Positions 50,982 through 64,000 of a stretch of DNA of 64,000 nt are shown piece by piece. The DNA lies in the NCBI GenBank assembly GCA_043756865.1, contig JAYUQG010000030.1:30703-94702 (forward strand). Direction: 5' to 3'. Every line of letters begins with the position of its first letter. The stretch's first letter is position 1. The notes under the pieces are model-generated. The model searched no databases and was not told the DNA's origin. It worked only from the letters and a program-made list of their open reading frames with translations. A program made the translations under genes and the position numbers. This DNA comes from a bacterium (lineage in GTDB: Bacteria > Patescibacteriota > Minisyncoccia > Phycocordibacterales > UBA6899).

Positions 50982-51009
50982 CCCCGCTCCGGCGGGGTTT
51001 GTTTTTTAT
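50982..51009 (+). terminator. rho-independent terminator abutting repeat copy 5
   Basis: ccccgctccggcgggg-TTTGTTTTTTAT. Confidence 0.75.
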
Positions 51010-51023
51010 CTGAGAAACAACAA

Positions 51024-51116
51024 AACTATTCGCCTATTCACCACACAGAGTACTTCCAATCCCTAACTCGCTTTGCTCGAAGGGATTTAGGTCGCGCGCG
51101 AATTAGAGAATAATAG
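51024..51116 (+). repeat. MITE-like repeat, long form (copy 5)
   Basis: aactattcgcctattcaccacacagagtacttccaatccctaactcgctttgctcgaagggatttaggtcgcgcgcgaattagagaataatag. Confidence 0.85.
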
Positions 51117-51130
51117 AAAATACGAGGAAA

Positions 51131-51178
51131 TTAATTATTCATTATAATACGCCATGGCGTATTATAATGAATAATTAA
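51131..51178. repeat. 48-bp perfect palindrome (copy A of 2)
   Basis: ttaattattcattataatacgccatggcgtattataatgaataattaa is exactly self-complementary, centred on CCATGG, with two TATAAT hexamers; identical to 53925..53972. Confidence 0.9.
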
Positions 51179-51223
51179 ATACGTTTAAAAAAGCGGAAAA
51201 GGTTGTGGAGGGGTGGTTGGTCG

Positions 51224-51242
51224 GGCGCGAATTAGAGAATAG
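51224..51242 (+). repeat. MITE right-arm fragment (solo)
   Basis: ggcgcgaattagagaatag without a paired left arm. Confidence 0.6.
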
Positions 51243-51246
51243 TTTG

Positions 51247-51271
51247 AACTATCCGCAAATTCCGGATAGTT
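51247..51271. promoter_or_regulatory. perfect 9-bp inverted repeat (candidate operator) upstream of the NYN gene
   Basis: aactatccg-caaattc-cggatagtt, 100 bp upstream of ATG 51373. Confidence 0.35.
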
Positions 51272-51372
51272 GCCGACTTGGCAGTATGTGCATTACTTGC
51301 AAGGACTGAATTTCGAATTAATTTTGTTTGCTCAAACATATGATACTGCAACCCACAGGAGAACAACACGAA

Positions 51373-51900
51373 ATGATTCCTTTTGATATACTCTTATACG
51401 TGCAACCTCAGAAAAAAATACACATCTATATTGACGGCAACAACCTTTATCGAGGCGCGAAAGAGCTTGGTTTTGAAATCGACTACAAAAAATTTCGTAA
51501 TTGGCTCCGACAAAAATATAACGCAACAAATGTATATCTGTTCATCGGCCTCGTTCCCGATCGTGTAAAGTTTTACGAGCATCTACAAGAATGCGGTTTT
51601 ATTCTTGTGTTCAAGCAAACAATATCTGTCGAAGGGCGCATAAAAGGAAATTGCGACGCTGAACTTGTCTTGAAAGCAGTGTCAGATTTTTACACCAAAA
51701 CTTTTGACAAATGTATTCTCGTAACAGGAGACGGCGACTTCGGGTGCTTGGTTGAATTCTTGGCGCGCGAAAAGTCGCTTTTGGGTATTATTGCTCCTGA
51801 CAAGAAAAAATGTTCAATCTTGCTGAGAAATAAGAACGTTGAAATCACCTTTCTCAATGACCTTTATCACAAGTTTTCCACAAAAACTGATAAAGCATAA
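51373..51900 (+). CDS. NYN-domain (LabA/PIN-like) predicted ribonuclease
   Basis: Start MIPFDILLYVQPQKKIHIYIDGNNLY with an AGGAGA SD; NYN catalytic Asp residues in IDGNN, DAEL and TGDGDF. Confidence 0.7.
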   Translation: MIPFDILLYVQPQKKIHIYIDGNNLYRGAKELGFEIDYKKFRNWLRQKYNATNVYLFIGLVPDRVKFYEHLQECGFILVFKQTISVEGRIKGNCDAELVLKAVSDFYTKTFDKCILVTGDGDFGCLVEFLAREKSLLGIIAPDKKKCSILLRNKNVEITFLNDLYHKFSTKTDKA

Positions 51901-52083
51901 AAAGAAAAAGCCCCCAATGCATACGTATATGCACCAGGGTCTCTTTCATGGTTATGGGCAAATTATATCAATATTTAGCCATAACGCAAGGATCCAAAAA
52001 TCAACCAAAGTTAGGCAAAAGTATGCCATTAAATCATATCAATACCACTGTGCATTTTTTGCACATTCCTAGTTCCATTAGGA

Positions 52084-52170
52084 CTTTTCGCCTATTCCAC
52101 CACACAGAGTACTTCCAATCCCTAACTCGCTTTACTCAAAGGGATTTAGGTCGCGCGAATTAGAGAATAG
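52084..52170 (+). repeat. MITE-like repeat, long form (copy 6)
   Basis: ttttcgcctattccaccacacagagtacttccaatccctaactcgctttactcaaagggatttaggtcgcgcgaattagagaatag. Confidence 0.85.
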
Positions 52171-52360
52171 AAATGGGGGGAAGAATTTGACTACTGATTT
52201 ACTAATAAAATCGTGACTCGATTTTCGTTTTCATAACAATTCTGCATGGAAGGGCTCCATGAAATTTTGTGTCTCACCATATTAAAAAATATTAGGTATT
52301 GACAAATACAAATTTGTTTGTTATTATATATTTGTTCTTTTCTTCAAACGGAGACTCGCA

Positions 52361-54098: not shown

Positions 54099-54953
54099 TT
54101 ATTCTTCTTTTCGAACCACTTGATCAAGGGTTTTGCCATCAGATTCCCTTTTCCACTCAGTCCATCCATTTGCATTCCTACCGAGTACATTCTGTGCTGC
54201 GCCTGAGGGACTACTGAATACATAGTCACTCACAAATACATAAGACTCAGGTCCGTCGTCGCGCAACACGCCGTCTTCCATGAGTATTGGACGTAGTTTG
54301 AGATAGCGCTCCTTGGCGCTATCAACAATTTCTTTTCTTGCTCTTGAGCCCGCACGCACAACCATTCCTTCACTGGTGTAGAGTCCCCTCGCCTCTGCTC
54401 CAGGGCCACGGCAAATATATATTTCTTCAGGATTCTTCTCAAAATCTGTAACCTTTTTTAGAAACGTCCATCCGATCGTTGCTAGGATAAGTTTTATGTA
54501 TTCCGCGAAAGTCTCCACGTCTGCACGATCCGACTCGTTCAGCCTTGTTTGACTAGGCTCATTGCCATTTTCAAGACGGACGCGGTTTGCTTCCTTTGTT
54601 TCTCTAATGAGTAGCTCTTCGAGATATTTTGCGTGCGCTTTATTTAGAGAGCCCTGTGTGGAGACAAAACACACTGCGGTACCCCAAAAGTCTTTATTTT
54701 TGTTGTGGCTCCTGATCCGTTCTTTTACGTTCTCACTTTCACCGATATACAGTGAGCCGGTTTCCTGCCCTATATCATTTTCAAGTAGAAAGTAGACTCC
54801 TTGTGCATCTAAGTCAACACGTTGCATCGCCAAATCGATACTATCGCGAGGAATGACGATGGCACGCCCTGTCCAGTTCATGGTTTCAATAGTACGCAGC
54901 CCTGTAGGATTCCCCTCCGCGAGAAAAACCTTGATAGTTGGTCGTGTCTCCAT
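54099..54953 (-). CDS. GIY-YIG nuclease domain protein with C-terminal DUF4357
   Basis: GIY-YIG motif GVYFLLENDIGQETGSLYIGESENVKERIRSHN; the C-terminal ~100 aa match the DUF4357 pattern typical of RM-associated genes. Confidence 0.7.
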   Translation of the reverse strand: METRPTIKVFLAEGNPTGLRTIETMNWTGRAIVIPRDSIDLAMQRVDLDAQGVYFLLENDIGQETGSLYIGESENVKERIRSHNKNKDFWGTAVCFVSTQGSLNKAHAKYLEELLIRETKEANRVRLENGNEPSQTRLNESDRADVETFAEYIKLILATIGWTFLKKVTDFEKNPEEIYICRGPGAEARGLYTSEGMVVRAGSRARKEIVDSAKERYLKLRPILMEDGVLRDDGPESYVFVSDYVFSSPSGAAQNVLGRNANGWTEWKRESDGKTLDQVVRKEE

Positions 54954-55043: not shown

Positions 55044-57422
55044 TTACGACGGGGTTTTGTCGTACAGGTATGGCTGGAAGTCTACGAATGCTCGGCTGAT
55101 CTCTTCAGGATCACCGAGATCGGCTACGGCATCAGAAATTGAATTGTTGTATTTGAGACGAAGCAACGGATTAAGCTGTTCTTGACTAAGCTCCTCCACA
55201 CCCACAGTCACATAGTGAGAAAGCACGAAATCAAGAAATGCTTGCTGCTGTGTCTTTAAGTGCGATGTGATGTGCAATCTTGCCTTCGCCGCACGTTCTT
55301 CTCGCGTCATTGGTGGGATTGCATATGCCACGTTAGCAAGCACATCAAAGATGTCACTCTTCTCTGCCTCAATAATCTTTTGCATCTCGGCAAGTTGGTC
55401 ACGACCAAATCCCTTCTCGGCTAGTCCTGCCAAGAGTTTCGCTCGGGTATCCGGTGCACTCCAAATAGTGCGGAGTTCATCTTCGTTCTTGAAGAAATCA
55501 GGTAGCTTACCAAATAGCATTTCCATGAACTGTTGTGCAGACATGGGCTTGCCGTCCGGATGCCAGAACGTTGTCATCATCATGTGTTGAATAGCGCGCT
55601 CTTTCCCGTCGGCAAGTTTCACCTTGATCTTCGACTTCTTGTTGCACACACACGGATCTTGTCCGCACACTGGGCATGCTTCCTTCGGGCATTCACAAGG
55701 AGTTTTGCCACACTTAGTACATGGTTTGGGCGGAGGAACTTTACACACGCATGGTTTCTGCCCGCACTTCTTGCATTGCTCGTCTTCCTCTGGAGGACCA
55801 TCCCATGCAGGGTCGTTGAAATGATGGTATGCCTTCACAAAGTCGTAGATGGTGAAATAATCCTTGCCGTCAAAGAGACGTGTGCCACGTCCAATGATCT
55901 GCTTGAACTCGATCATAGAATTAATGGGGCGCATCAGCACGATGTTGCGAATGTTTCGTGCATCAACACCAGTCGAAAGTTTTTGCGAAGTGGTGAGAAT
56001 GGTGGGAATGGACATTTCATTGTCCTGAAAATCGCGCAAGTGCTGGTCGCCAATTGCTCCATCATTGGCAGTAACACGCTGACAATAATTCGGGTCAGTA
56101 CTTGTCTTCACCTGATTGATGAAGTCGCGAACCAAAAGTGCGTGTGCTTGGTTTGCACAAAATACGAGCGTCTTCTCGTTCTGGTTGATTTGGTTCATGA
56201 ATACCTTCACGCGATGCATTTCACGCTCACGAATCACAATGAGTCTATTAAACTCTGCTTCCTCGTAGCGTTTCCCTGCTTCAATATCTCCCTCCACAAC
56301 TGTGTCATCGGGCGTATAGACGTACTCATCCATCGTCGTTGAGATCTGCTTCACTTTGAATGGGGTGAGAAATCCATCATTGATCCCCTCCTTTAGTGAG
56401 TATACATAGACTGGCTCACCAAAATAGGCATACGTGTCTACGTTGTCTTTGCGCTTTGGTGTTGCAGTGAGTCCGAGCTGCACAGCGGGCTCAAAATACT
56501 CAAGAATTGCACGCCAATTGCTCTCGTCCTTCGCGCCACCACGATGACATTCGTCGATGATGATGAAATCAAAGAAATCCTTGGGGTATTCACCAAAGTA
56601 TGGAGTATCCCCCGGACCACTCAAGAAGGTCTGAAATATGGTAAAGAAGATGCTCCCGTTTGTCGGCACTCTCCCCTTTTGTCGTATTGAGCTGGGGTCA
56701 ATGCGCACGAGTGCATCTTCGGGAAAAGCAGAGAAAGCGTTATATGCCTGATTGGCGAGAATGTTTCTGTCTGCAAGAAAAAGAATGCGGGACTGACGCG
56801 TTGCTTCACGACTCAGATTCCATCGACTCTTAAACAACTTCCATGCAATCTGGAAAGCAATGAAGGTCTTCCCTGTTCCTGTCGCAAGCGTGAGCAACAC
56901 GCGCTGCTTGCTGTCCGCTATGGCATCTAAGGTCTTCTCGACAGCAATATCTTGATAGTAGCGGGCGGGATGACTGCCACCTTTGTCTTCAAACGGAATG
57001 GCGGCAAATTGGTCTCTCCATGTATTTTGCTCAGAGAAGGTCTGATTCCAGAGCTCTTCAGGGGTTGGATATTGTGCAATTTCTCCCTCTGTGACCTCTC
57101 CCGCCATATCAATCGCATAGATACCCTTTCCGTTCGTTGCATAGGTATACCGAATGGCCATCTTTTCTGCGTAGCTCTTTGCTTGCCCTACTCCCTCGGT
57201 CAGTTCTTCGTCCCACGCCTTGGCCTCCACGACCGCGAGCTTATGATTGCGATAGACCAAAACATAATCAGCGATTTGTGGTTTTGCTCGACGACCTTGT
57301 CCTTCAAGGCGACCCTGTGTGATGTGATACTCGCGCAAGATACGACTGCCATCAACAACACCCCAGCCTGCCGCCTTCAGTGCTGGATCAATGTGCTCTG
57401 CTCGTGTTTCTGCTTCATTCAT
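55044..57422 (-). CDS. hsdR: type I restriction enzyme R subunit HsdR, with an inserted triple Cys-rich repeat
   Basis: N-terminal HSDR_N (MNEAETRAEHIDPALKAAGW), helicase motifs I (LTLATGTGKT) and II DECHRG, motifs III-VI, and a unique insert CKKCGQKPCVC...CTKCGKTPCEC...CPVCGQDPCVC. Confidence 0.9.
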   Translation of the reverse strand: MNEAETRAEHIDPALKAAGWGVVDGSRILREYHITQGRLEGQGRRAKPQIADYVLVYRNHKLAVVEAKAWDEELTEGVGQAKSYAEKMAIRYTYATNGKGIYAIDMAGEVTEGEIAQYPTPEELWNQTFSEQNTWRDQFAAIPFEDKGGSHPARYYQDIAVEKTLDAIADSKQRVLLTLATGTGKTFIAFQIAWKLFKSRWNLSREATRQSRILFLADRNILANQAYNAFSAFPEDALVRIDPSSIRQKGRVPTNGSIFFTIFQTFLSGPGDTPYFGEYPKDFFDFIIIDECHRGGAKDESNWRAILEYFEPAVQLGLTATPKRKDNVDTYAYFGEPVYVYSLKEGINDGFLTPFKVKQISTTMDEYVYTPDDTVVEGDIEAGKRYEEAEFNRLIVIREREMHRVKVFMNQINQNEKTLVFCANQAHALLVRDFINQVKTSTDPNYCQRVTANDGAIGDQHLRDFQDNEMSIPTILTTSQKLSTGVDARNIRNIVLMRPINSMIEFKQIIGRGTRLFDGKDYFTIYDFVKAYHHFNDPAWDGPPEEDEQCKKCGQKPCVCKVPPPKPCTKCGKTPCECPKEACPVCGQDPCVCNKKSKIKVKLADGKERAIQHMMMTTFWHPDGKPMSAQQFMEMLFGKLPDFFKNEDELRTIWSAPDTRAKLLAGLAEKGFGRDQLAEMQKIIEAEKSDIFDVLANVAYAIPPMTREERAAKARLHITSHLKTQQQAFLDFVLSHYVTVGVEELSQEQLNPLLRLKYNNSISDAVADLGDPEEISRAFVDFQPYLYDKTPS

Positions 57423-58075
57423 GATCTTCGTTTCTTTACTGGATACTGTTTCACTGAAACTCCGTCGTACCGCTCCTTGAGCCCCTGATAAATGAGACCA
57501 ACCAGTGGCTTGTAGTCATTAGCGGAATCGATCTGCGCGAGCGCCTGACGATAACGATTCTTGTTTTCTTGCTCTACTTTTATGGAGATACCGATCAGTC
57601 CATAGCGCTCCAAGATCAAGTTTGCTGCTAGGCGTGCAGTGCGTCCATTGCCATCTCGGAATGGATGCACACAGGTAATAGTGTAGTGCACCCAAGCCGC
57701 AAGCTGAATAACCTGCTCAACCATCTTGTGTACTTTCTGTGTATTTCCATTTCTCCCCTTGATGACCCCTTCGGCCTTTTCTATCGCTTGGAGTTTTTGC
57801 GCTAATTCTGCTGCTCGTTCCTCCATGAGGAAAGGCACTCTCGAGTGATGCGGTGGGATGTGCTTGGAATTCGTGATCTCTAGGTTTTCTGTACGATACT
57901 TTCCCGCGATCTCAGTCCACGCATCCCTAAATATTTCCTTGTGAATCTCTTTGATAGTTTCGACGGAAATCGGCTTATGCAACTGAGCAAACTTACGCAC
58001 AAAACGAGAGGCTCGAATGACTCCGATTGCCTCTCGTTTTTGCAGCTCCTCCTCAGTGCGTGGTCGCTCAGCCAT
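57419..58075 (-). CDS. Fic-family protein (AMPylation/Doc-like toxin domain)
   Basis: Fic motif HPFRDGNGRTARL; 218 aa; sits between hsdS and hsdR. Confidence 0.85.
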   Translation of the reverse strand: MAERPRTEEELQKREAIGVIRASRFVRKFAQLHKPISVETIKEIHKEIFRDAWTEIAGKYRTENLEITNSKHIPPHHSRVPFLMEERAAELAQKLQAIEKAEGVIKGRNGNTQKVHKMVEQVIQLAAWVHYTITCVHPFRDGNGRTARLAANLILERYGLIGISIKVEQENKNRYRQALAQIDSANDYKPLVGLIYQGLKERYDGVSVKQYPVKKRRS

Positions 58076-58082
58076 GGAATGA

Positions 58083-58277
58083 CTAGGCTACCTTTTGTGC
58101 AAGTTTTTCGAATTCTCCGCGATCAAGCTTGCTCCCCTCGAGGGCACTGGAATAATAGGCGTGTTCAATATCCCAACCCTTCTCAAGGGCGGACTTCTCT
58201 TTCGGCGTGAGCTTCGAAATCTGCTTCTCTGCTTGTTTCTTACTCGCCATGAGGTGTACGAGCTGTAGATTCTTCAT
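58083..58277 (-). CDS. small ORF carrying the Fic inhibitory alpha-inh motif (VbhA-like antitoxin, or split N-terminus of a class II Fic)
   Basis: 64 aa with the S/T-x-x-x-E-G/N motif SSALEGS. The stop is 7 nt before the fic ATG, in a different frame. Confidence 0.45.
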   Translation of the reverse strand: MKNLQLVHLMASKKQAEKQISKLTPKEKSALEKGWDIEHAYYSSALEGSKLDRGEFEKLAQKVA

Positions 58278-58357: not shown

Positions 58358-59548
58358 TTACAATTTCCCTGTGAAGGCCTGATGGAGAAGCGACTTCTTC
58401 AGCGCCTTCAGCGCGTCGAGTTTGCGTTTGTAGATGGATTCGAGGTGTTGGGTTTCGGATTCGAGTTTCCTGATTATTGTTACGACTCTTTCTTGTTCAG
58501 TATGAGATGGGAGAGCAATTGGGTAAGGTTCGAGAGTTTCTTTGGTCACCCCGATCTGACCTGCCGCTCGCTCAGAATGGTAAATAATGTATTCGAGGAT
58601 TGTGGAGTGCTTCAGGAAGTAAAAAAGGAAGTCGCGGGAGATTTTTGATTCATCTGGCACTGCTTTCATCAATGCGACGTTATAAGCCCCTTCTAGTCCA
58701 CGGAGGATTTGAAAAAGTGGGGGGCCGTAGCGTCCAATCATTACGTCATCAGCGTTGCAGAATCGTCTTGCCTGAGCGCGCGGAATGTAAACGACATGGT
58801 TGTCGCTCTTGTAGTCACGAATCTGAATGAGGCGGATGTTATCTTCCTGCTTGGTTTTCGAGAATACCAGCTTCGGTGGCTGTGAGCCACCGATAAACTC
58901 ACAAACTTCTCCCAGGGATGACTCCGCCCACCCCGGGCCGCGCTGTGTGAAGACAGATTGGAGGTGGCTTTCAAAGAGGGCGCGTGCGTTTTGCAGGTTT
59001 TTCTCGGCATTGGCTTTTGCTGTGGCGATGCCCTTAAACGCTTCGTCGAGCAGACCAACGATCCGCTGCTGTTCGTCCAGCGGTGGGACGGGAATAGTGT
59101 AATCCTCGATGAAATCCTTGGACACTCGCTTGTGCCCGACTGCGCCTGTCATCCGCGCCGAACCTTCGACCCGAAATGTTTCACGAGAAAGGAAGTAGTA
59201 GAGCCATTCCTTGCTGACTGTTGGGTCGGGGCGAAACACATAGTATTCGCTCGAACCGAAGCCGATTCCGTTCTTCAGCCCATCTGCGATTCCAAGTTTC
59301 CCGTTTTCAAAGCAAGGCGTGATTTTCGCGAGAAGAACATCACCATCGGCGAAGTAAGTGTAGCTTCCGACGACTGCGGACAGCGGCTTCGTTTGAGTCG
59401 CCTGCACGAACTTCACGTCAATACCCATGTCCTCCATCGGCAGGAACGAGACCAGCGAAGAAGATGAAACCTTTTCACGTGCTTCGCTTTTCGGGGGCTT
59501 TATCTGGCACACCTCCGCGAGCGCCTTTGTATGCCACCCCTTCTTCAT
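58358..59548 (-). CDS. hsdS: type I restriction-modification specificity subunit HsdS
   Basis: Start MKKGWHTKALAEV overlaps the hsdM stop by 4 bp (ATGA). Two target-recognition domains are separated and followed by the conserved LPPL.EQ..I and coiled-coil repeats. Confidence 0.85.
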   Translation of the reverse strand: MKKGWHTKALAEVCQIKPPKSEAREKVSSSSLVSFLPMEDMGIDVKFVQATQTKPLSAVVGSYTYFADGDVLLAKITPCFENGKLGIADGLKNGIGFGSSEYYVFRPDPTVSKEWLYYFLSRETFRVEGSARMTGAVGHKRVSKDFIEDYTIPVPPLDEQQRIVGLLDEAFKGIATAKANAEKNLQNARALFESHLQSVFTQRGPGWAESSLGEVCEFIGGSQPPKLVFSKTKQEDNIRLIQIRDYKSDNHVVYIPRAQARRFCNADDVMIGRYGPPLFQILRGLEGAYNVALMKAVPDESKISRDFLFYFLKHSTILEYIIYHSERAAGQIGVTKETLEPYPIALPSHTEQERVVTIIRKLESETQHLESIYKRKLDALKALKKSLLHQAFTGKL

Positions 59549-61002
59549 AGCAGCGCTTTGATATTCTCCAGCACTTCTGCGCTCTCGGCGTCCAGCGCGG
59601 CGATTTCCTTCATAATGTCTTTTGGACTCTTGTGCACGATTTCTTCTCCGCCGTTCGGATTCTTTACGGAGAGATCGAAAGTCTTCTGGTCGATGGTGGA
59701 AATATCTACGGACCACGACTTCAGTGAGTCGGCCTTTGTTTTTTGAAGCTTGATGAACTCTGCAAGATCGGCATCATTCAAGGGATTAGTCTTTCCCATG
59801 TTGCGACCGGGCTCCAGCTGGTAGTACCAGACCTTGCGGGTCTTTGATCCTTTCTCGAAGAAGAGCACGACCGTCTTCACTCCCGCACCCTGGAATGTAC
59901 CACTCGGCATATCGAGCACAGTATGGAGGTTGCAACTCTCCAAAAGGAGCTTCCGCAAGCTGACTGAGGCATTGTCTGTGTTTGAGAGGAACGTGTTCTT
60001 GATGACCACGCCACCGCGTCCCCCCGCTTTGAGCATCTTGATGAAATGCTGAAGGAAAAGAAACGCAGTCTCGCCGGTACGAATAGGAAAATTTTGCTGC
60101 ACTTCTGGTCGCTCTTTCCCACCAAATGGCGGATTGGCGAGGACTACTTCATAGCGATCCTTTTCTTGAATGTCAGCAAGGTTTTCAGTAAGCGTGTTGG
60201 TGTGGATGATGTTGGGCGCTTCTATACCATGGAGGATCATATTCATGATTGCAATCACGTAGGCGAGGGACTTCTTTTCCTTGCCGTAAAACGTGCCCTC
60301 CTGCAGTTTTTTGTCTTGCGCAACGGTACGCTTGGGATTCATTTCCTGTAGATAGTCGTACGCCTCACAAAGGAAGCCCGCGGAGCCAACTGCAGCGTCG
60401 TAAACACGCTCACCGAGCTTGGGTGCAGTCACCGCCACCATGGCGCGAATGAGTGGGCGTGGCGTGTAATACTCGCCACCGTTTCTGCCAGCATTCCCCA
60501 TGTTCTTGATCTTGGTTTCGTAGAGGTGTGAGAGCTCGTGCTTCTCAGTCTGGGAACGAAATCGGAGTTCATCGATATGGTCGATGACTTCGCGGAGATT
60601 ATACCCACTCTGCATGCGGTTTTTTATCTCGCCGAAAATCTCACCGATCTTGTATTCGATGGTGTTCGGACCGCTCGCCTTTTGCTTGAAAGCGTGGAGA
60701 TACGGGAAAAGCTTTTGATTCACAAACGCGAGCAAATCCTCGCCTTTCATTGAGGTGTTATGGTCGAGCTTTCCATCATTTCCCCGCGGAGCTGCCCACG
60801 TGCCCCAACGATATTCTGGATCGAGGATGTAGGAGTATTTCTTGCCGTCTACCTTGGCCTCCATGGCCTTGTCGTGCTCCAGATCGTCGAGGTATTTTAG
60901 GAAGAGGAGCCAAGAAGTCTGCTCGGTATAGTCGAGTTCGCTCGATGATCCGGCATCCTTATGCAGTATGTCGTCGATATTCTTGAAAGTTTGCTCAAAC
61001 AT
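59545..61002 (-). CDS. hsdM: type I restriction-modification N6-adenine DNA methyltransferase HsdM
   Basis: N-terminal HsdM_N region, an AdoMet motif and the catalytic NPPFGG. Confidence 0.9.
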   Translation of the reverse strand: MFEQTFKNIDDILHKDAGSSSELDYTEQTSWLLFLKYLDDLEHDKAMEAKVDGKKYSYILDPEYRWGTWAAPRGNDGKLDHNTSMKGEDLLAFVNQKLFPYLHAFKQKASGPNTIEYKIGEIFGEIKNRMQSGYNLREVIDHIDELRFRSQTEKHELSHLYETKIKNMGNAGRNGGEYYTPRPLIRAMVAVTAPKLGERVYDAAVGSAGFLCEAYDYLQEMNPKRTVAQDKKLQEGTFYGKEKKSLAYVIAIMNMILHGIEAPNIIHTNTLTENLADIQEKDRYEVVLANPPFGGKERPEVQQNFPIRTGETAFLFLQHFIKMLKAGGRGGVVIKNTFLSNTDNASVSLRKLLLESCNLHTVLDMPSGTFQGAGVKTVVLFFEKGSKTRKVWYYQLEPGRNMGKTNPLNDADLAEFIKLQKTKADSLKSWSVDISTIDQKTFDLSVKNPNGGEEIVHKSPKDIMKEIAALDAESAEVLENIKALL

Positions 61003-61257
61003 AATTGGCTAAGTATCTATTGAGCAAGCATAAGCTTTTTACCCCTCTTTTACAATCAGTAATGCTTGCGCCTAGTTAAAGGAGGCTTTAACAGAAGGCG
61101 TGAGCAAATTGCATATCTTATTATGCGACGCAATTAAAAGAATAACTGACTTATGCCCGCTCACATGCAACCTAACAAATTTTAGTAGTTACAAAGGTAT
61201 GTTAAATTTACTAAATTTACTTAAAGCTACAGAGATTTATCTAGACCTTGTCCTGTT

Positions 61258-61842
61258 TCAGTATTGCTGAGCAACAACAAAGTCGTACAATTCTTTAAAT
61301 GACGGGCATCTAGTCTTAAGTACGTCCAAGGATACGTGGGCAGCGATGATGCTGTTGTGGGTAGTGTTTAAATACCTTTTTTCTTTGTTAGAACATAAAA
61401 AAACCAAATCTCTCAGCTTCTGAGAAAGTATGTTTTCTGGCAAACCCTTTGTTTTGGGTAGTTTTTTTAGATTTAATGCTCTTTTGATACCCGATGGATC
61501 ACTCAAAAACCAAGCCTCAATTTCTTCTGTTGGTATACAAATTAGGTATTTTGGGAATGGATTTGCTTTTAAAATAGAGCTGAGCTCAAGCCTGAGACTT
61601 TTTAAGTCGCTTCTGTCGCGGTCATGAACTAAAATGAGAATATCACAGCCCCTACTTTTAAGATTAAGTGCATAATCTCCAGCCTTTCTGCGCAACTTGG
61701 CGCAGCCACCCGCAATTGACTGCTTAAAAGCAATATTCTGTTTCGTAGTAATTCGCCTAATTATTATTTTTGTCGACTCAAAATCACTCAAATCTTCAGC
61801 AATGATTCCGATGCATTTAACTTTACTCATATGCAAATCCAC
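61258..61842 (-). CDS. small TOPRIM-like (DUF4276-like) protein, predicted nuclease partner of the upstream ATPase
   Basis: 194 aa. A conserved Glu in IGIIAEDLSD and a DxD in ILILVHDRD match TOPRIM/OLD-type catalytic residues. Overlaps the ATPase gene by 20 bp and is AT-rich. Confidence 0.55.
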   Translation of the reverse strand: MDLHMSKVKCIGIIAEDLSDFESTKIIIRRITTKQNIAFKQSIAGGCAKLRRKAGDYALNLKSRGCDILILVHDRDRSDLKSLRLELSSILKANPFPKYLICIPTEEIEAWFLSDPSGIKRALNLKKLPKTKGLPENILSQKLRDLVFLCSNKEKRYLNTTHNSIIAAHVSLDVLKTRCPSFKELYDFVVAQQY

Positions 61843-63040
61843 TTTCCTTCCAATATTCCCCCAAATTACCAGATTTTTCTAAATATTCACGAAGTGCTCT
61901 AAAGTCATTTTTTGACAACGACTGAGTCAGGGATTTAACTTGAGTACCCTTTCCTTTCTGTTTATTCACCAATAAAACATTTTCAGGCTTAAGCATATCC
62001 AACACATAATCTGAATGTGTACTTAAGATAATTTGCTTGTGTGCCGACTCTTGTTTAATTAATTCAATTACGCTACTCAGTAATCCGTGATGAACACAGA
62101 CCTCAGGTTCTTCAATTAGTAGCAGATTACTTTGATCATTTAGTATATAAAATATAAGTGCAAGTGTCTTAAAAGTACCCTCGGAAAGCTGATTTAGCGA
62201 CAAGGAGAGGCCGTCGATCTTGATTGTCGGAATAACAATGTGTTTACTCCTCTCGATAATTTTTACTTTGCCACCAGACTTAACTTCATGCGAATTACTT
62301 GGCAATTCATGCTCGATAAAATCGAGTTCTTCAATAAGCCCAATTCCATTTTTCCCAACTGTATTCACGTATTGCCTAAATTTACCGGCGTTGTTCTTCT
62401 TTATGGTATATAAATCAAAGATAAATTTATCGTGAGTTCTTTCTGACCTAATATTTCTAAAATGCGACCCCGAATTCTCTGATTCAATTTCAATTGAAAC
62501 TGGACATCTGCTCGGGTCTGAAAACTGTGTTGCACCATAATAGCTTATGTTTAATAGGTATTTCAATATTTCAAATGCCGTACCTCGATCAGGGTCGTTT
62601 TTGCCCTGTTTAATGAAATAGCCACGACTAGTTAATCCACTCTTGTGTCGAAACGGAAAATTTTGCATCTCGGGCGGGATTTCTTTCCACTTAGATTTGA
62701 CGCCAGTTTTTCGATAATTAATTTGAATTGAATAGATTTGATCTCGACTACTTTCATCTGGATCATAAAAGATAGTCGCTTTTACATCTAGTAATACTTT
62801 ATTTATTTCTAACTTAAGATTTATTGTAGCTTTTGAAAAAGAAAGCCTTCGCGCAACTTGCATTATGTTCCTGCCAAATCTGGACCTGGGTAAATTTTGA
62901 AAAAGGAGGAAACTATTTAATATATTGCTCTTACCTGCACCGTTAGTTCCTATTAACACCGTGAGATTTTCGCTGATATTTAACTTAGTACTAATACAGG
63001 ATTTATAGTTCGTTATGCTGTATTTTTGTAATTTAATCAT
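61823..63040 (-). CDS. ABC/SMC-like AAA ATPase (AAA_21/AAA_15-type), candidate abortive-infection ATPase
   Basis: Walker A GTNGAGKSN, Walker B LLLIEEPE, a D-loop/H-motif STHSDYVL, and a long helical insert between them. Very AT-rich relative to the neighbours. Confidence 0.75.
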   Translation of the reverse strand: MIKLQKYSITNYKSCISTKLNISENLTVLIGTNGAGKSNILNSFLLFQNLPRSRFGRNIMQVARRLSFSKATINLKLEINKVLLDVKATIFYDPDESSRDQIYSIQINYRKTGVKSKWKEIPPEMQNFPFRHKSGLTSRGYFIKQGKNDPDRGTAFEILKYLLNISYYGATQFSDPSRCPVSIEIESENSGSHFRNIRSERTHDKFIFDLYTIKKNNAGKFRQYVNTVGKNGIGLIEELDFIEHELPSNSHEVKSGGKVKIIERSKHIVIPTIKIDGLSLSLNQLSEGTFKTLALIFYILNDQSNLLLIEEPEVCVHHGLLSSVIELIKQESAHKQIILSTHSDYVLDMLKPENVLLVNKQKGKGTQVKSLTQSLSKNDFRALREYLEKSGNLGEYWKESGFAYE

Positions 63041-63307
63041 TTTTTGATTTTATCATTAAGAATTCATCCTGGCTTTATCCGCTCATACGATAAATGATCT
63101 TGGCGAAAACAAGGTTTGGTTCGGCGCAAAGAATGAGACGTCCTGGTGGAGTTTCCAAAAAACCCAACCTCGCTCGGAGGTTCAGATTTTGGATGCAATC
63201 CGACGGCGGTTTTGCGCAGTGTGTCAGCGGGAATAGTCGGCTATTTCCGCGACACCGAGCACAAAACCAGCTAGGAGTGCGCCAAAATTGGACGTCCCTC
63301 CAACCAA

Positions 63308-64000
63308 CTAGTAAGACCTAAGTTTGTTTATGTTGCCGTGTTGGCGAATCTTTTCATGCGCCTTGGCCTCAATTTGGCGAATACGTTCACGAGTCACACC
63401 AAACTCCTTGCCAACCTCTTCTAATGTGTGTGTAACACCATCTAGGAGGCCGTGGCGCATTTCAAGGATTTTGCGTTCCTTCGGGCTAAGATCCGAAAGT
63501 ATCTCCCCCACTTGATCCGAAAGAATACGGCGGGAAGATTCTGCATCGGGAGAGAGAATTTTGTCGTCGGCGATGAATTCACCGAGTGTCGACTTCTCAT
63601 CGTCATCACCAATCGGCTTCTCGAGTGACACCGTGTCTTGGTCGATATTTTCGATGATGCGGACGCGCTCGACATCGATACCCATCTCGGTCGAAACTTC
63701 CTCGGCCATTGGCTCGCGTCCAAGGTCTTGGGTCAGACGGCGGACCACCTGCTTGTATTTCGCAATGGTCTCCACCATGTGCACAGGAATACGGATGGTG
63801 CGGCTTTGGTCGGCGAGTGCGCGGGTAATAGCCTGACGAATCCACCATGTGGCGTACGTCGAGAATTTAAAACCTTTCGACCAGTCGAATTTGTCTACTG
63901 CTCTAAAGAGTCCGAGGTTCCCCTCTTGAATGAGGTCAAGGAGTGTGAGGTCGGGAGAGCGTCCTACATACTTCTTCGCAACGGAAACCACGAGGCGGAG
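63308..64000 (-). CDS. rpoD: primary RNA polymerase sigma factor (sigma-70/RpoD family), 3' portion; the 5' end lies beyond the window
   Basis: Region 2 ([34 protein letters not shown]), region 3 and region 4 ([21 protein letters not shown]). The ORF is open to the window edge. Confidence 0.85.

Follow-up and report, generated by a model that had tools for sequence, protein, structure and literature searches.

An ABC ATPase–DUF4276 gene pair of the HEC-01 type beside a type I restriction-modification operon, a candidate anti-phage module

Introduction

What is encoded by two overlapping, low-GC genes that lie directly upstream of a type I restriction-modification (RM) operon, and does such a pair act on its own or as part of that operon? 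This question is raised by a 64,000-nt stretch of the bacterial contig JAYUQG010000030.1 (hereafter the window, within which all positions are counted), where a gene for an ATP-binding cassette (ABC)-type ATPase and a gene for a small DUF4276 protein lie together on the minus strand. A first-pass annotation, made from the letters of the window, had proposed that the pair is a split OLD-like abortive-infection module, with a partner short enough to mark an undescribed variant. Here, we compare both proteins with defense-system, domain, and structure libraries, and the locus with its relatives in other genomes. These sequence comparisons are best explained by a two-gene module of the HEC-01 type that is self-contained, was acquired horizontally, and has genes that are probably translationally coupled.

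Results

The gene pair matches the candidate system HEC-01

Both open reading frames (ORFs) reported in the first-pass annotation are present on the minus strand, with lengths of 405 aa and, counted from a GTG start, 194 aa, as are the motifs quoted for them: Walker A GTNGAGKS and Walker B LLLIEE in the large protein and AEDLSD and HDRD in the small one. Neither ORF arises by chance, as the homologues of both number in the hundreds to thousands. In PADLOC, the best family for the ATPase was HEC-01A (6.2e-29), with HEC-01A models making up 11 of the 25 rows listed. The small protein matched HEC-01B with 8.7e-12 over residues 66 to 125 and, more modestly, with 1.4e-8 over the full length (residues 11 to 187), and 17 of the 20 families listed for it were HEC-01B. 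The genes are also arranged as the HEC-01 layout prescribes, being adjacent and co-oriented on the same strand with an overlap of 8 bp.

HEC-01 is catalogued in PADLOC as "Hma-embedded candidate 01" and was described as an ABC ATPase paired with a TOPRIM protein, the latter being HEC-01B, located inside Hma systems (Payne et al., bioRxiv 10.1101/2024.01.29.577857). The window's locus contains the same two genes, first the ABC ATPase and then the small TOPRIM-like protein, a DUF4276 protein of about 190 aa. It differs from HEC-01 in its location, next to a type I RM system and not within Hma, in the modest full-length HEC-01B match, and in the lack of the SPKE motif from the small protein. By these profile matches, the pair is a further member of a catalogued candidate anti-phage system and not a new kind. 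Indeed, the length of the small protein is the DUF4276 norm, with family members typically being 185 to 200 aa long (median 191 aa over 148 representatives), so its short size is no sign of a new variant and the earlier suggestion to that effect falls away. Nothing at the locus is categorically new. Rather, it is one more instance of a cassette that is widespread but whose mechanism is poorly understood. When 1.84 billion cluster representatives were searched with a profile, 2,487 DUF4276 clusters were retrieved at E ≤ 1e-3; at 50% identity, the family amounts to ~2,500 clusters.

The large protein is an apparently intact ABC/SMC-type ATPase

Pfam searches with the large protein returned AAA_21 (3.9e-21), AAA_15 (1.2e-17), and SMC_N (6e-11). 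In an alignment with 20 homologues of 47 to 54% identity, the Walker A motif, the Q-loop glutamine Q172, the LSEGT signature, the Walker B motif with its D-loop, and the H-loop histidine H342 are all invariant, and so is the C-terminal tail GNLGEYWKEGGF. The domain matches and the complete set of ABC motifs thus bear out the earlier identification and mark the protein as an intact ABC/SMC-type ATPase of the AAA_15/AAA_21 group, within an OLD/SMC-like clade. The solved folds closest to its AlphaFold2 (AF2) model, which has a predicted local distance difference test score (pLDDT) of 82, are those of PtuA from Septu and retron systems (Foldseek 6.9e-13) and Rad50, with E values of ~1e-12 and TM-scores of ~0.4 to 0.5. 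By sequence, the nearest solved proteins are PtuA (phmmer 3.9e-7) and GajA.

The small protein is a DUF4276 member with TOPRIM-like acidic residues

The small protein matches Pfam DUF4276 (PF14103) with 5.2e-14 and 53.4 bits, compared with a GA of 30.2, over profile positions 2 to 189 of 192, which identifies it by profile as a true DUF4276 member. DUF4276 has been placed in the Toprim superfamily, with Mad4 named as a homologue (PMC12065111). Consistent with this placement, the AF2 model (pLDDT 93) contains the succession β1(6-11)-α-β2(34-39)-α-β3(64-68)-α-β4(95-98), after which the C-terminal half is helical, and the residues expected of a TOPRIM motif follow the strands in order, with E12 after β1, G42 after β2, and D70xD72 after β3. 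The DUF4276-like, TOPRIM-type character claimed in the first-pass annotation is therefore upheld both by the score and by the position of the Glu, Gly, and DxD residues.

Conservation was counted over 23 homologues and then over 148 family representatives, all of which match DUF4276. Among the latter, E12 and D16 are each kept in 144, G42 in 141, D70 and D72 each in 147, E103 in 136, and E105 in all 148. A further motif, SPKE, is nearly invariant, with the proline present in 139 and the lysine in 143. In the Burkholderia OLD nuclease, for which the TOPRIM motif and the two-metal site have been defined, the corresponding elements are E400/E404, D455xD457, T506xE508, and K562 (PMC6755086). In our mapping, which is made by analogy, the conserved DUF4276 residues would mirror this E/E, DxD, TxE, K arrangement, and the putative nuclease active site would comprise E12/D16, D70xD72, and E103xE105 and, in addition, a lysine in the SPKE region. 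The window's copy keeps all of the acidic residues. It departs from the family at two points: SQK takes the place of SPKE, with a two-codon deletion, and HDLD reads HDRD because the conserved L71 is an arginine.

Comparison of the small-protein model with the viral structure library BFVD gave an RloB-like protein as the best overall match (TMq 0.56/TMt 0.51; second by E value), and the matches to DnaG-type TOPRIM domains were weak. Other Pfam families also matched among the 148 representatives, namely DUF3226 in 24 and, weakly (0.003), RloB in 4. One representative of 448 aa, P0231, is a fusion of DUF4276 to an S-adenosylmethionine (SAM)-dependent methyltransferase domain (Methyltransf_25, 3.8e-11) and constitutes another link of the DUF4276 nuclease family to methylation.

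The two genes form one unit that was probably acquired horizontally

In 185,579 species genomes, scanned with a strict peptide pattern, 123 relatives were confirmed. This number is a lower bound and indicates that the family occurs sporadically. We took 80 loci from species-representative genomes, which belong to Bacteroidota, candidate phyla radiation (CPR) groups, Cyanobacteria, Myxococcota, Proteobacteria, Verrucomicrobiota, and Planctomycetota, and combined them with three loci fetched earlier to give 83 related loci. In 82 of the 83, the gene immediately upstream of the DUF4276 gene encodes an ATPase homologue, and over the 80 loci the similarity scores of both proteins to the window's pair co-vary (Spearman rho 0.85). 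The ATPase and DUF4276 genes form one unit.

The junction between the genes is also conserved. The ORF list gave the small ORF as 61258..61842, with the GTG start and a 20-bp overlap that the first-pass annotation had adopted. An ATG lies four codons further in, and this codon, at 61830, is most likely the true start, because the 8-bp junction that it creates, ATGAGTAA, is common in relatives and because an independent gene call agrees: in a Logan contig of identical sequence, which comes from an independent assembly, the same ATG was chosen. The small protein is thus most likely 190 aa long, with an overlap of 8 bp, instead of 194 aa with 20 bp. An 8-bp overlap of the ATGnnTAA type is found at the ATPase/DUF4276 junction of 54 of 81 related loci, and the junction variants ATGnnTAA/TAG/TGA are kept across at least six phyla, though protein identity drops to ~30%. 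This conservation suggests selection for translational coupling or for a fixed stoichiometry.

The two genes also stand out by composition. The ATPase gene has a GC content of 34.9% and the small gene one of 37.7%, against 48 to 52% for the flanking genes and a window mean of 48%. The earlier figure of about 30% for the genes was too low. The edges of the low-GC block are sharp, at ~61003 and ~63095, and from its composition we read this block of ~2.1 kb as a horizontally acquired cassette. Its foreign composition fits with the location of the closest homologues (50 to 59% identity), which are found mainly in low-GC Bacteroidota and CPR bacteria. No direct or inverted repeats were found flanking the insertion. 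A hairpin followed by a T-run is located upstream of the ATPase gene and downstream of a sigma-70 gene, whose transcript it probably keeps apart from the cassette. The evidence for this is weak, as the consensus scan saw four terminator-like sites in the region with 2.5 expected. A promoter scan gave sites no more numerous than in shuffled controls.

Comparison with other ATPase–TOPRIM systems

The literature groups MADS Mad3/Mad4 with PARIS, AbiL, and OLD as ATPase-plus-TOPRIM systems, as set out in the PARIS and Menshen papers (PMC12065111). The "split OLD-like" label given to the window's pair in the first-pass annotation agrees with published views (PMC11464382, PMC12065111, and bioRxiv 10.1101/2024.01.29.577857). 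Membership in PARIS, AbiL, or Gabija, to which the pair had also been likened, did not stand up, since there is no DUF4435, RloB, or OLD-TOPRIM match.

The MADS system of Pseudomonas aeruginosa resembles the pair in combining Mad3, an ABC ATPase of the AAA15/21 type, with Mad4, a partner described as DUF4276-like, and mad3 and mad4 are each required for defense (10.1101/2023.03.30.534895). MADS differs in being an eight-gene operon with mandatory mad6 to mad8, a methyltransferase, and a regulator. The NCBIfam MAD3 model gave 63.2 bits for the window's ATPase, compared with a cut-off of 420 bits, and the small protein had no mad4 match in PADLOC. When the neighboring genes other than hsdR, hsdS, and hsdM were scanned with PADLOC, no mad models came up; by Pfam, the neighbors are HsdR, HsdS, HsdM, Fic, GIY-YIG, NYN, and sigma-70.

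PARIS, likewise a split ABC ATPase (AAA_15/21) and TOPRIM nuclease, is the best-understood mechanistic model: its ATPase scaffold recognizes a protein of the phage and sets free the nuclease, whose target for cleavage is tRNA (PMC11464382). Its nuclease AriB, however, is a DUF4435 protein of ~35 kDa, compared with the 22-kDa DUF4276 partner in the window. In addition, PARIS is often found on phages or satellites, whereas a relative of the DUF4276 family was present on only 2 of 2.9 million viral contigs. The small protein had no DUF4435 match at E ≤ 1 and no AriB model among its PADLOC matches. An AriA model, PDLC02980, did match the ATPase, with coordinates exactly those of the generic AAA_21 model.

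AbiL (AbiLi/AbiLii) and Rlo (RloA/RloB, restriction-linked ORFs) also combine an AAA_21-type ATPase with a small protein of the TOPRIM superfamily, and the Rlo genes have been linked to type I RM loci as well (as cited in PMC12065111). The AbiLi match of the ATPase (3.8e-23) is weaker than its HEC-01A match, and the small protein had no RloB (PF13707) match at E ≤ 1 and no AbiLii match in PADLOC. The OLD nucleases (P2 Old; class 1 and class 2) and GajA of Gabija share the ATPase type and the TOPRIM domain but carry them on one fused polypeptide with OLD-like_TOPRIM (PF20469), and Gabija adds a UvrD-type helicase. The window has two separate genes, with no match to PF20469 (for which P2 Old served as the positive control) and no helicase adjoining the pair. 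Finally, the fold of PtuA, from Septu and retrons, is the closest solved one to that of the window's ATPase. Its partner PtuB, however, is an HNH nuclease, and the TM-scores are only ~0.4, so the inserts differ.

Proposed function and competing explanations

The most likely function of the pair, by analogy with these systems, is anti-phage or anti-mobile-element defense. We estimate a probability of about 0.7 that it constitutes an ATPase-gated, two-metal TOPRIM nuclease acting in defense, a reading to which the parallels with PARIS, OLD, Gabija, and MADS and the intact putative catalytic residues point. In such a mechanism the ATPase would serve as the sensor and restrain the nuclease, as for AriA and AriB of PARIS, OLD, Gabija, and Mad3 and Mad4 of MADS. 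Once released or activated by a cue from the phage, or by the binding and hydrolysis of ATP, the nuclease would cleave either DNA or tRNA and so halt the replication of the phage, perhaps to the detriment of the cell. Complex formation, nuclease activity, the trigger, the target, and the abortive outcome are all points that we infer from the better-studied systems.

Several observations weigh against this reading or fail to support it. The HEC-01 representative of Payne et al. did not protect E. coli from any of the phages tried (bioRxiv 10.1101/2024.01.29.577857). When the small-protein model was compared with the Protein Data Bank (PDB) by Foldseek, nothing was obtained below E 1e-3 and there was no significant TOPRIM match; the top match was ExoVII (E 4.6e-3, TMq 0.39), and the others were generic Rossmann-like or flavodoxin-like folds, an outcome that speaks neither for nor against a TOPRIM fold. 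Searches of the PDB with hidden Markov models built from the 23- and 148-sequence profiles found no sequence-related solved structure. In addition, hhalign of the family profile gave a probability of 0.3% against a single P2 Old C-terminal sequence; the P2 Old relatives found were five near-identical fragments, and a scan of viral contigs gave Old relatives of 73 to 100% identity. The SQK and HDRD departures may mean that the activity of the window's copy is altered or impaired, the former being conceivable if the motif lysine corresponds to the OLD catalytic lysine. Moreover, the 140 nearest neighbors in related genomes are mostly unrelated housekeeping genes that differ between genomes, with a few transposases or integrases, so that guilt by association is weak outside the window's own locus. 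On the other side, a 2026 study reported that E. coli B was protected by a different HEC-01 representative from at least one of the phages T7, T5, and T4 (PMC12881386). The plaque-assay evidence for the HEC-01 type is thus mixed.

The location of the pair raises the possibility that it provides the neighboring type I RM system with an accessory nuclease, gated by the HsdM/HsdS methylation state in the manner of Mad3/Mad4 or of the Hma-embedded HEC-01. The pair lies directly upstream of hsdM on the same strand, at a distance of 255 bp in which the consensus scan found no terminator-like site. Pairs of an ABC ATPase and a DUF4276 protein also recur within methylation-based systems, in Hma and in MADS, where cells can do without the methyltransferase mad5 only if mad2 or mad3 is deleted as well (10.1101/2023.03.30.534895), and the fusion in P0231 joins the same family to a methyltransferase. 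However, the GC content of the pair, 35 to 38%, contrasts with that of the RM genes, 48 to 52%, which argues that the two were acquired separately. Further, in a test that would miss other methylase families, the 82 other related loci (80 of which came from the genome scan) yielded no relatives of the window's HsdM, HsdS, HsdR, or Fic over distances of up to 10 kb from the DUF4276 gene, and SNF2/DEAD helicases of the Dpd/Hma/BREX/DISARM type account for only 4 of the 140 immediate neighbors. The absence of RM relatives and the scarcity of defense helicases nearby suggest that the pair normally occurs alone. The earlier observation that the pair sits next to an RM system is thus correct for hsdM, but the adjacency is specific to the window's locus and is not conserved in the other related loci. 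On balance, we consider a role as an RM accessory unlikely.

In a stronger form of this idea, the cassette would not be autonomous here at all but would have been recruited as the methylation-gated nuclease arm of the adjacent RM operon, as a minimal Mad3/Mad4-like unit. Although we regard this as quite improbable, it would tie HEC-01-type pairs to epigenetic self/non-self discrimination, and the SQK-for-SPKE change could then reflect adaptation to the RM role. With its discrete low-GC insert of 2.1 kb adjoining a type I RM system, the locus is a clean natural case that could help to test whether such pairs act solo or in connection with methylation.

A compact, overlapping two-gene cassette of patchy distribution, scattered over mostly non-defense positions and occasionally adjoined by transposases or integrases, could also be a selfish addiction module of the toxin-antitoxin kind, in which the nuclease is the toxin, the ATPase neutralizes it, and the module stabilizes itself or its island. 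The negative plaque assay with one HEC-01 representative would fit this explanation, but the reduced plating of at least one phage by the other representative does not, and the homologous ATPase–TOPRIM modules of PARIS and MADS (Mad3/4) are shown defense components. The addiction and defense readings also overlap, as many toxin-antitoxin modules work as abortive-infection systems. We give an addiction module little chance of being the better description.

The departures of the window's copy from its family might instead be signs of decay, in which case it would be a nonfunctional remnant of a HEC-01-type cassette. The replacement of the near-invariant SPKE and the L71-to-R change are what such decay might produce, and in OLD nucleases a lysine of the helical domain contributes to catalysis (PMC6755086). 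However, both ORFs are full length and free of frameshifts, the acidic residues and the ATPase motifs are intact, and the altered motif retains one lysine; the recovery of the identical sequence in the independent Logan assembly also speaks against a defective copy, which we regard as very unlikely. Lastly, a housekeeping repair or recombination pair along the lines of RecF (ABC ATPase) and RecR (TOPRIM), whose domain logic the combination shares, or of SbcC/Rad50 with a nuclease, as the Rad50-like fold and the weak SMC_N and RecF matches of the ATPase might suggest, is scarcely credible given equivalog scores far under the cut-offs (27 bits compared with 172 for RecF, ~28 compared with 700 to 1000 for the Rad50 models), neighbors that differ between genomes, sporadic occurrence (at least 123 relatives in the 185,579 genomes), and foreign composition; the RecF paralog with conserved synteny that the first-pass annotation had named as an outcome speaking against its own proposal is thus very unlikely to be what the locus contains.

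Genomic neighborhood of the cassette

The positions of the cassette, its motifs, and the surrounding genes are collected in Table 1. Judged by domain content, the self-contained HEC-01-type cassette is at the edge of a small defense island of RM, Fic, GIY-YIG, and NYN genes, where it is placed between a housekeeping-type sigma-70 gene and the RM operon. No tRNA genes were found in the window, and there were no Rfam family matches within its 50- to 64-kb part.

Table 1. Features of the cassette and of its surroundings, in window coordinates
Feature	Position	Strand	Remarks
ABC/SMC-type ATPase gene, HEC-01A-like	61823..63040	-	405 aa, ATG start
Walker A GTNGAGKS	62927-62950	-	residues 31-38
Q-loop ATQFSD	62516-62533	-	Q172
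ABC signature LSEGT	62174-62188	-	residues 285-289
Walker B LLLIEE	62108-62125	-	residues 306-311 (with D-loop, LLLIEEPE 306-313)
H-loop STHS	62012-62023	-	H342
ATPase C-terminal tail GNLGEYWKE(S/G)GF	61832-61870	-	conserved
Gene junction ATGAGTAA	61823..61830	-	8-bp overlap of nuclease start and ATPase stop; read directly from the sequence
DUF4276/TOPRIM-like putative nuclease gene, HEC-01B-like	61258..61830	-	190 aa from ATG at 61830; 22 kDa
E12..D16 (within AEDLSD)	61783-61797	-	conserved acidic residues
G42	61705-61707	-	conserved Gly
D70-R-D72 (HDRD)	61615-61623	-	DxD motif
E103-I-E105	61516-61524	-	second acidic pair
SQK in place of SPKE	within 61414-61431	-	residues 134-139; degenerate motif
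Low-GC block	61003..63095		35.6% GC; both genes and 255-bp spacer to hsdM; from composition
Terminator-like hairpin, then T-run	63166..63182	-	between sigma-70 and ATPase genes; consensus scan
Sigma-70 gene (regions 2, 3, 4)	63308..63991	-	immediately upstream of cassette; runs off window end
hsdM	59545..61002	-	Pfam
hsdS	58358..59716 (as listed)	-	Pfam; true start probably ~59548
64-aa ORF	58083..58277	-	no family match; just upstream of Fic gene
Fic/DOC-family gene	57419..58075	-	between hsdR and hsdS; Pfam Fic 3.3e-21; PADLOC PDC-S04 2e-23, SoFic 2e-21
hsdR	55044..57422	-	Pfam
GIY-YIG/DUF4357 (RAMA-like) gene	54099..54953	-	immediately downstream of hsdR; PADLOC candidate PDC-S14 2.2e-97
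NYN nuclease-like (LabA-like) gene	51328..51900	+	Pfam NYN 6e-17; PADLOC NYN 1e-13, weak HEC-09

Within the RM operon, the hsdS ORF as listed begins at a GTG 170 nt inside hsdM. An internal methionine at residue 57 (MKKGW...) would move the start to ~59548. Judged from the coordinates, this ATG would share 2 nt with the stop of hsdM, probably the real layout of the two genes. The Fic gene overlaps the start of hsdR, and the 64-aa ORF next to it might be its partner or antitoxin. The NYN gene sits in a second low-GC patch of the window, at ~51000 to 52250 with a GC fraction of 0.38 to 0.40, and may be another horizontally acquired candidate defense gene of the same island.

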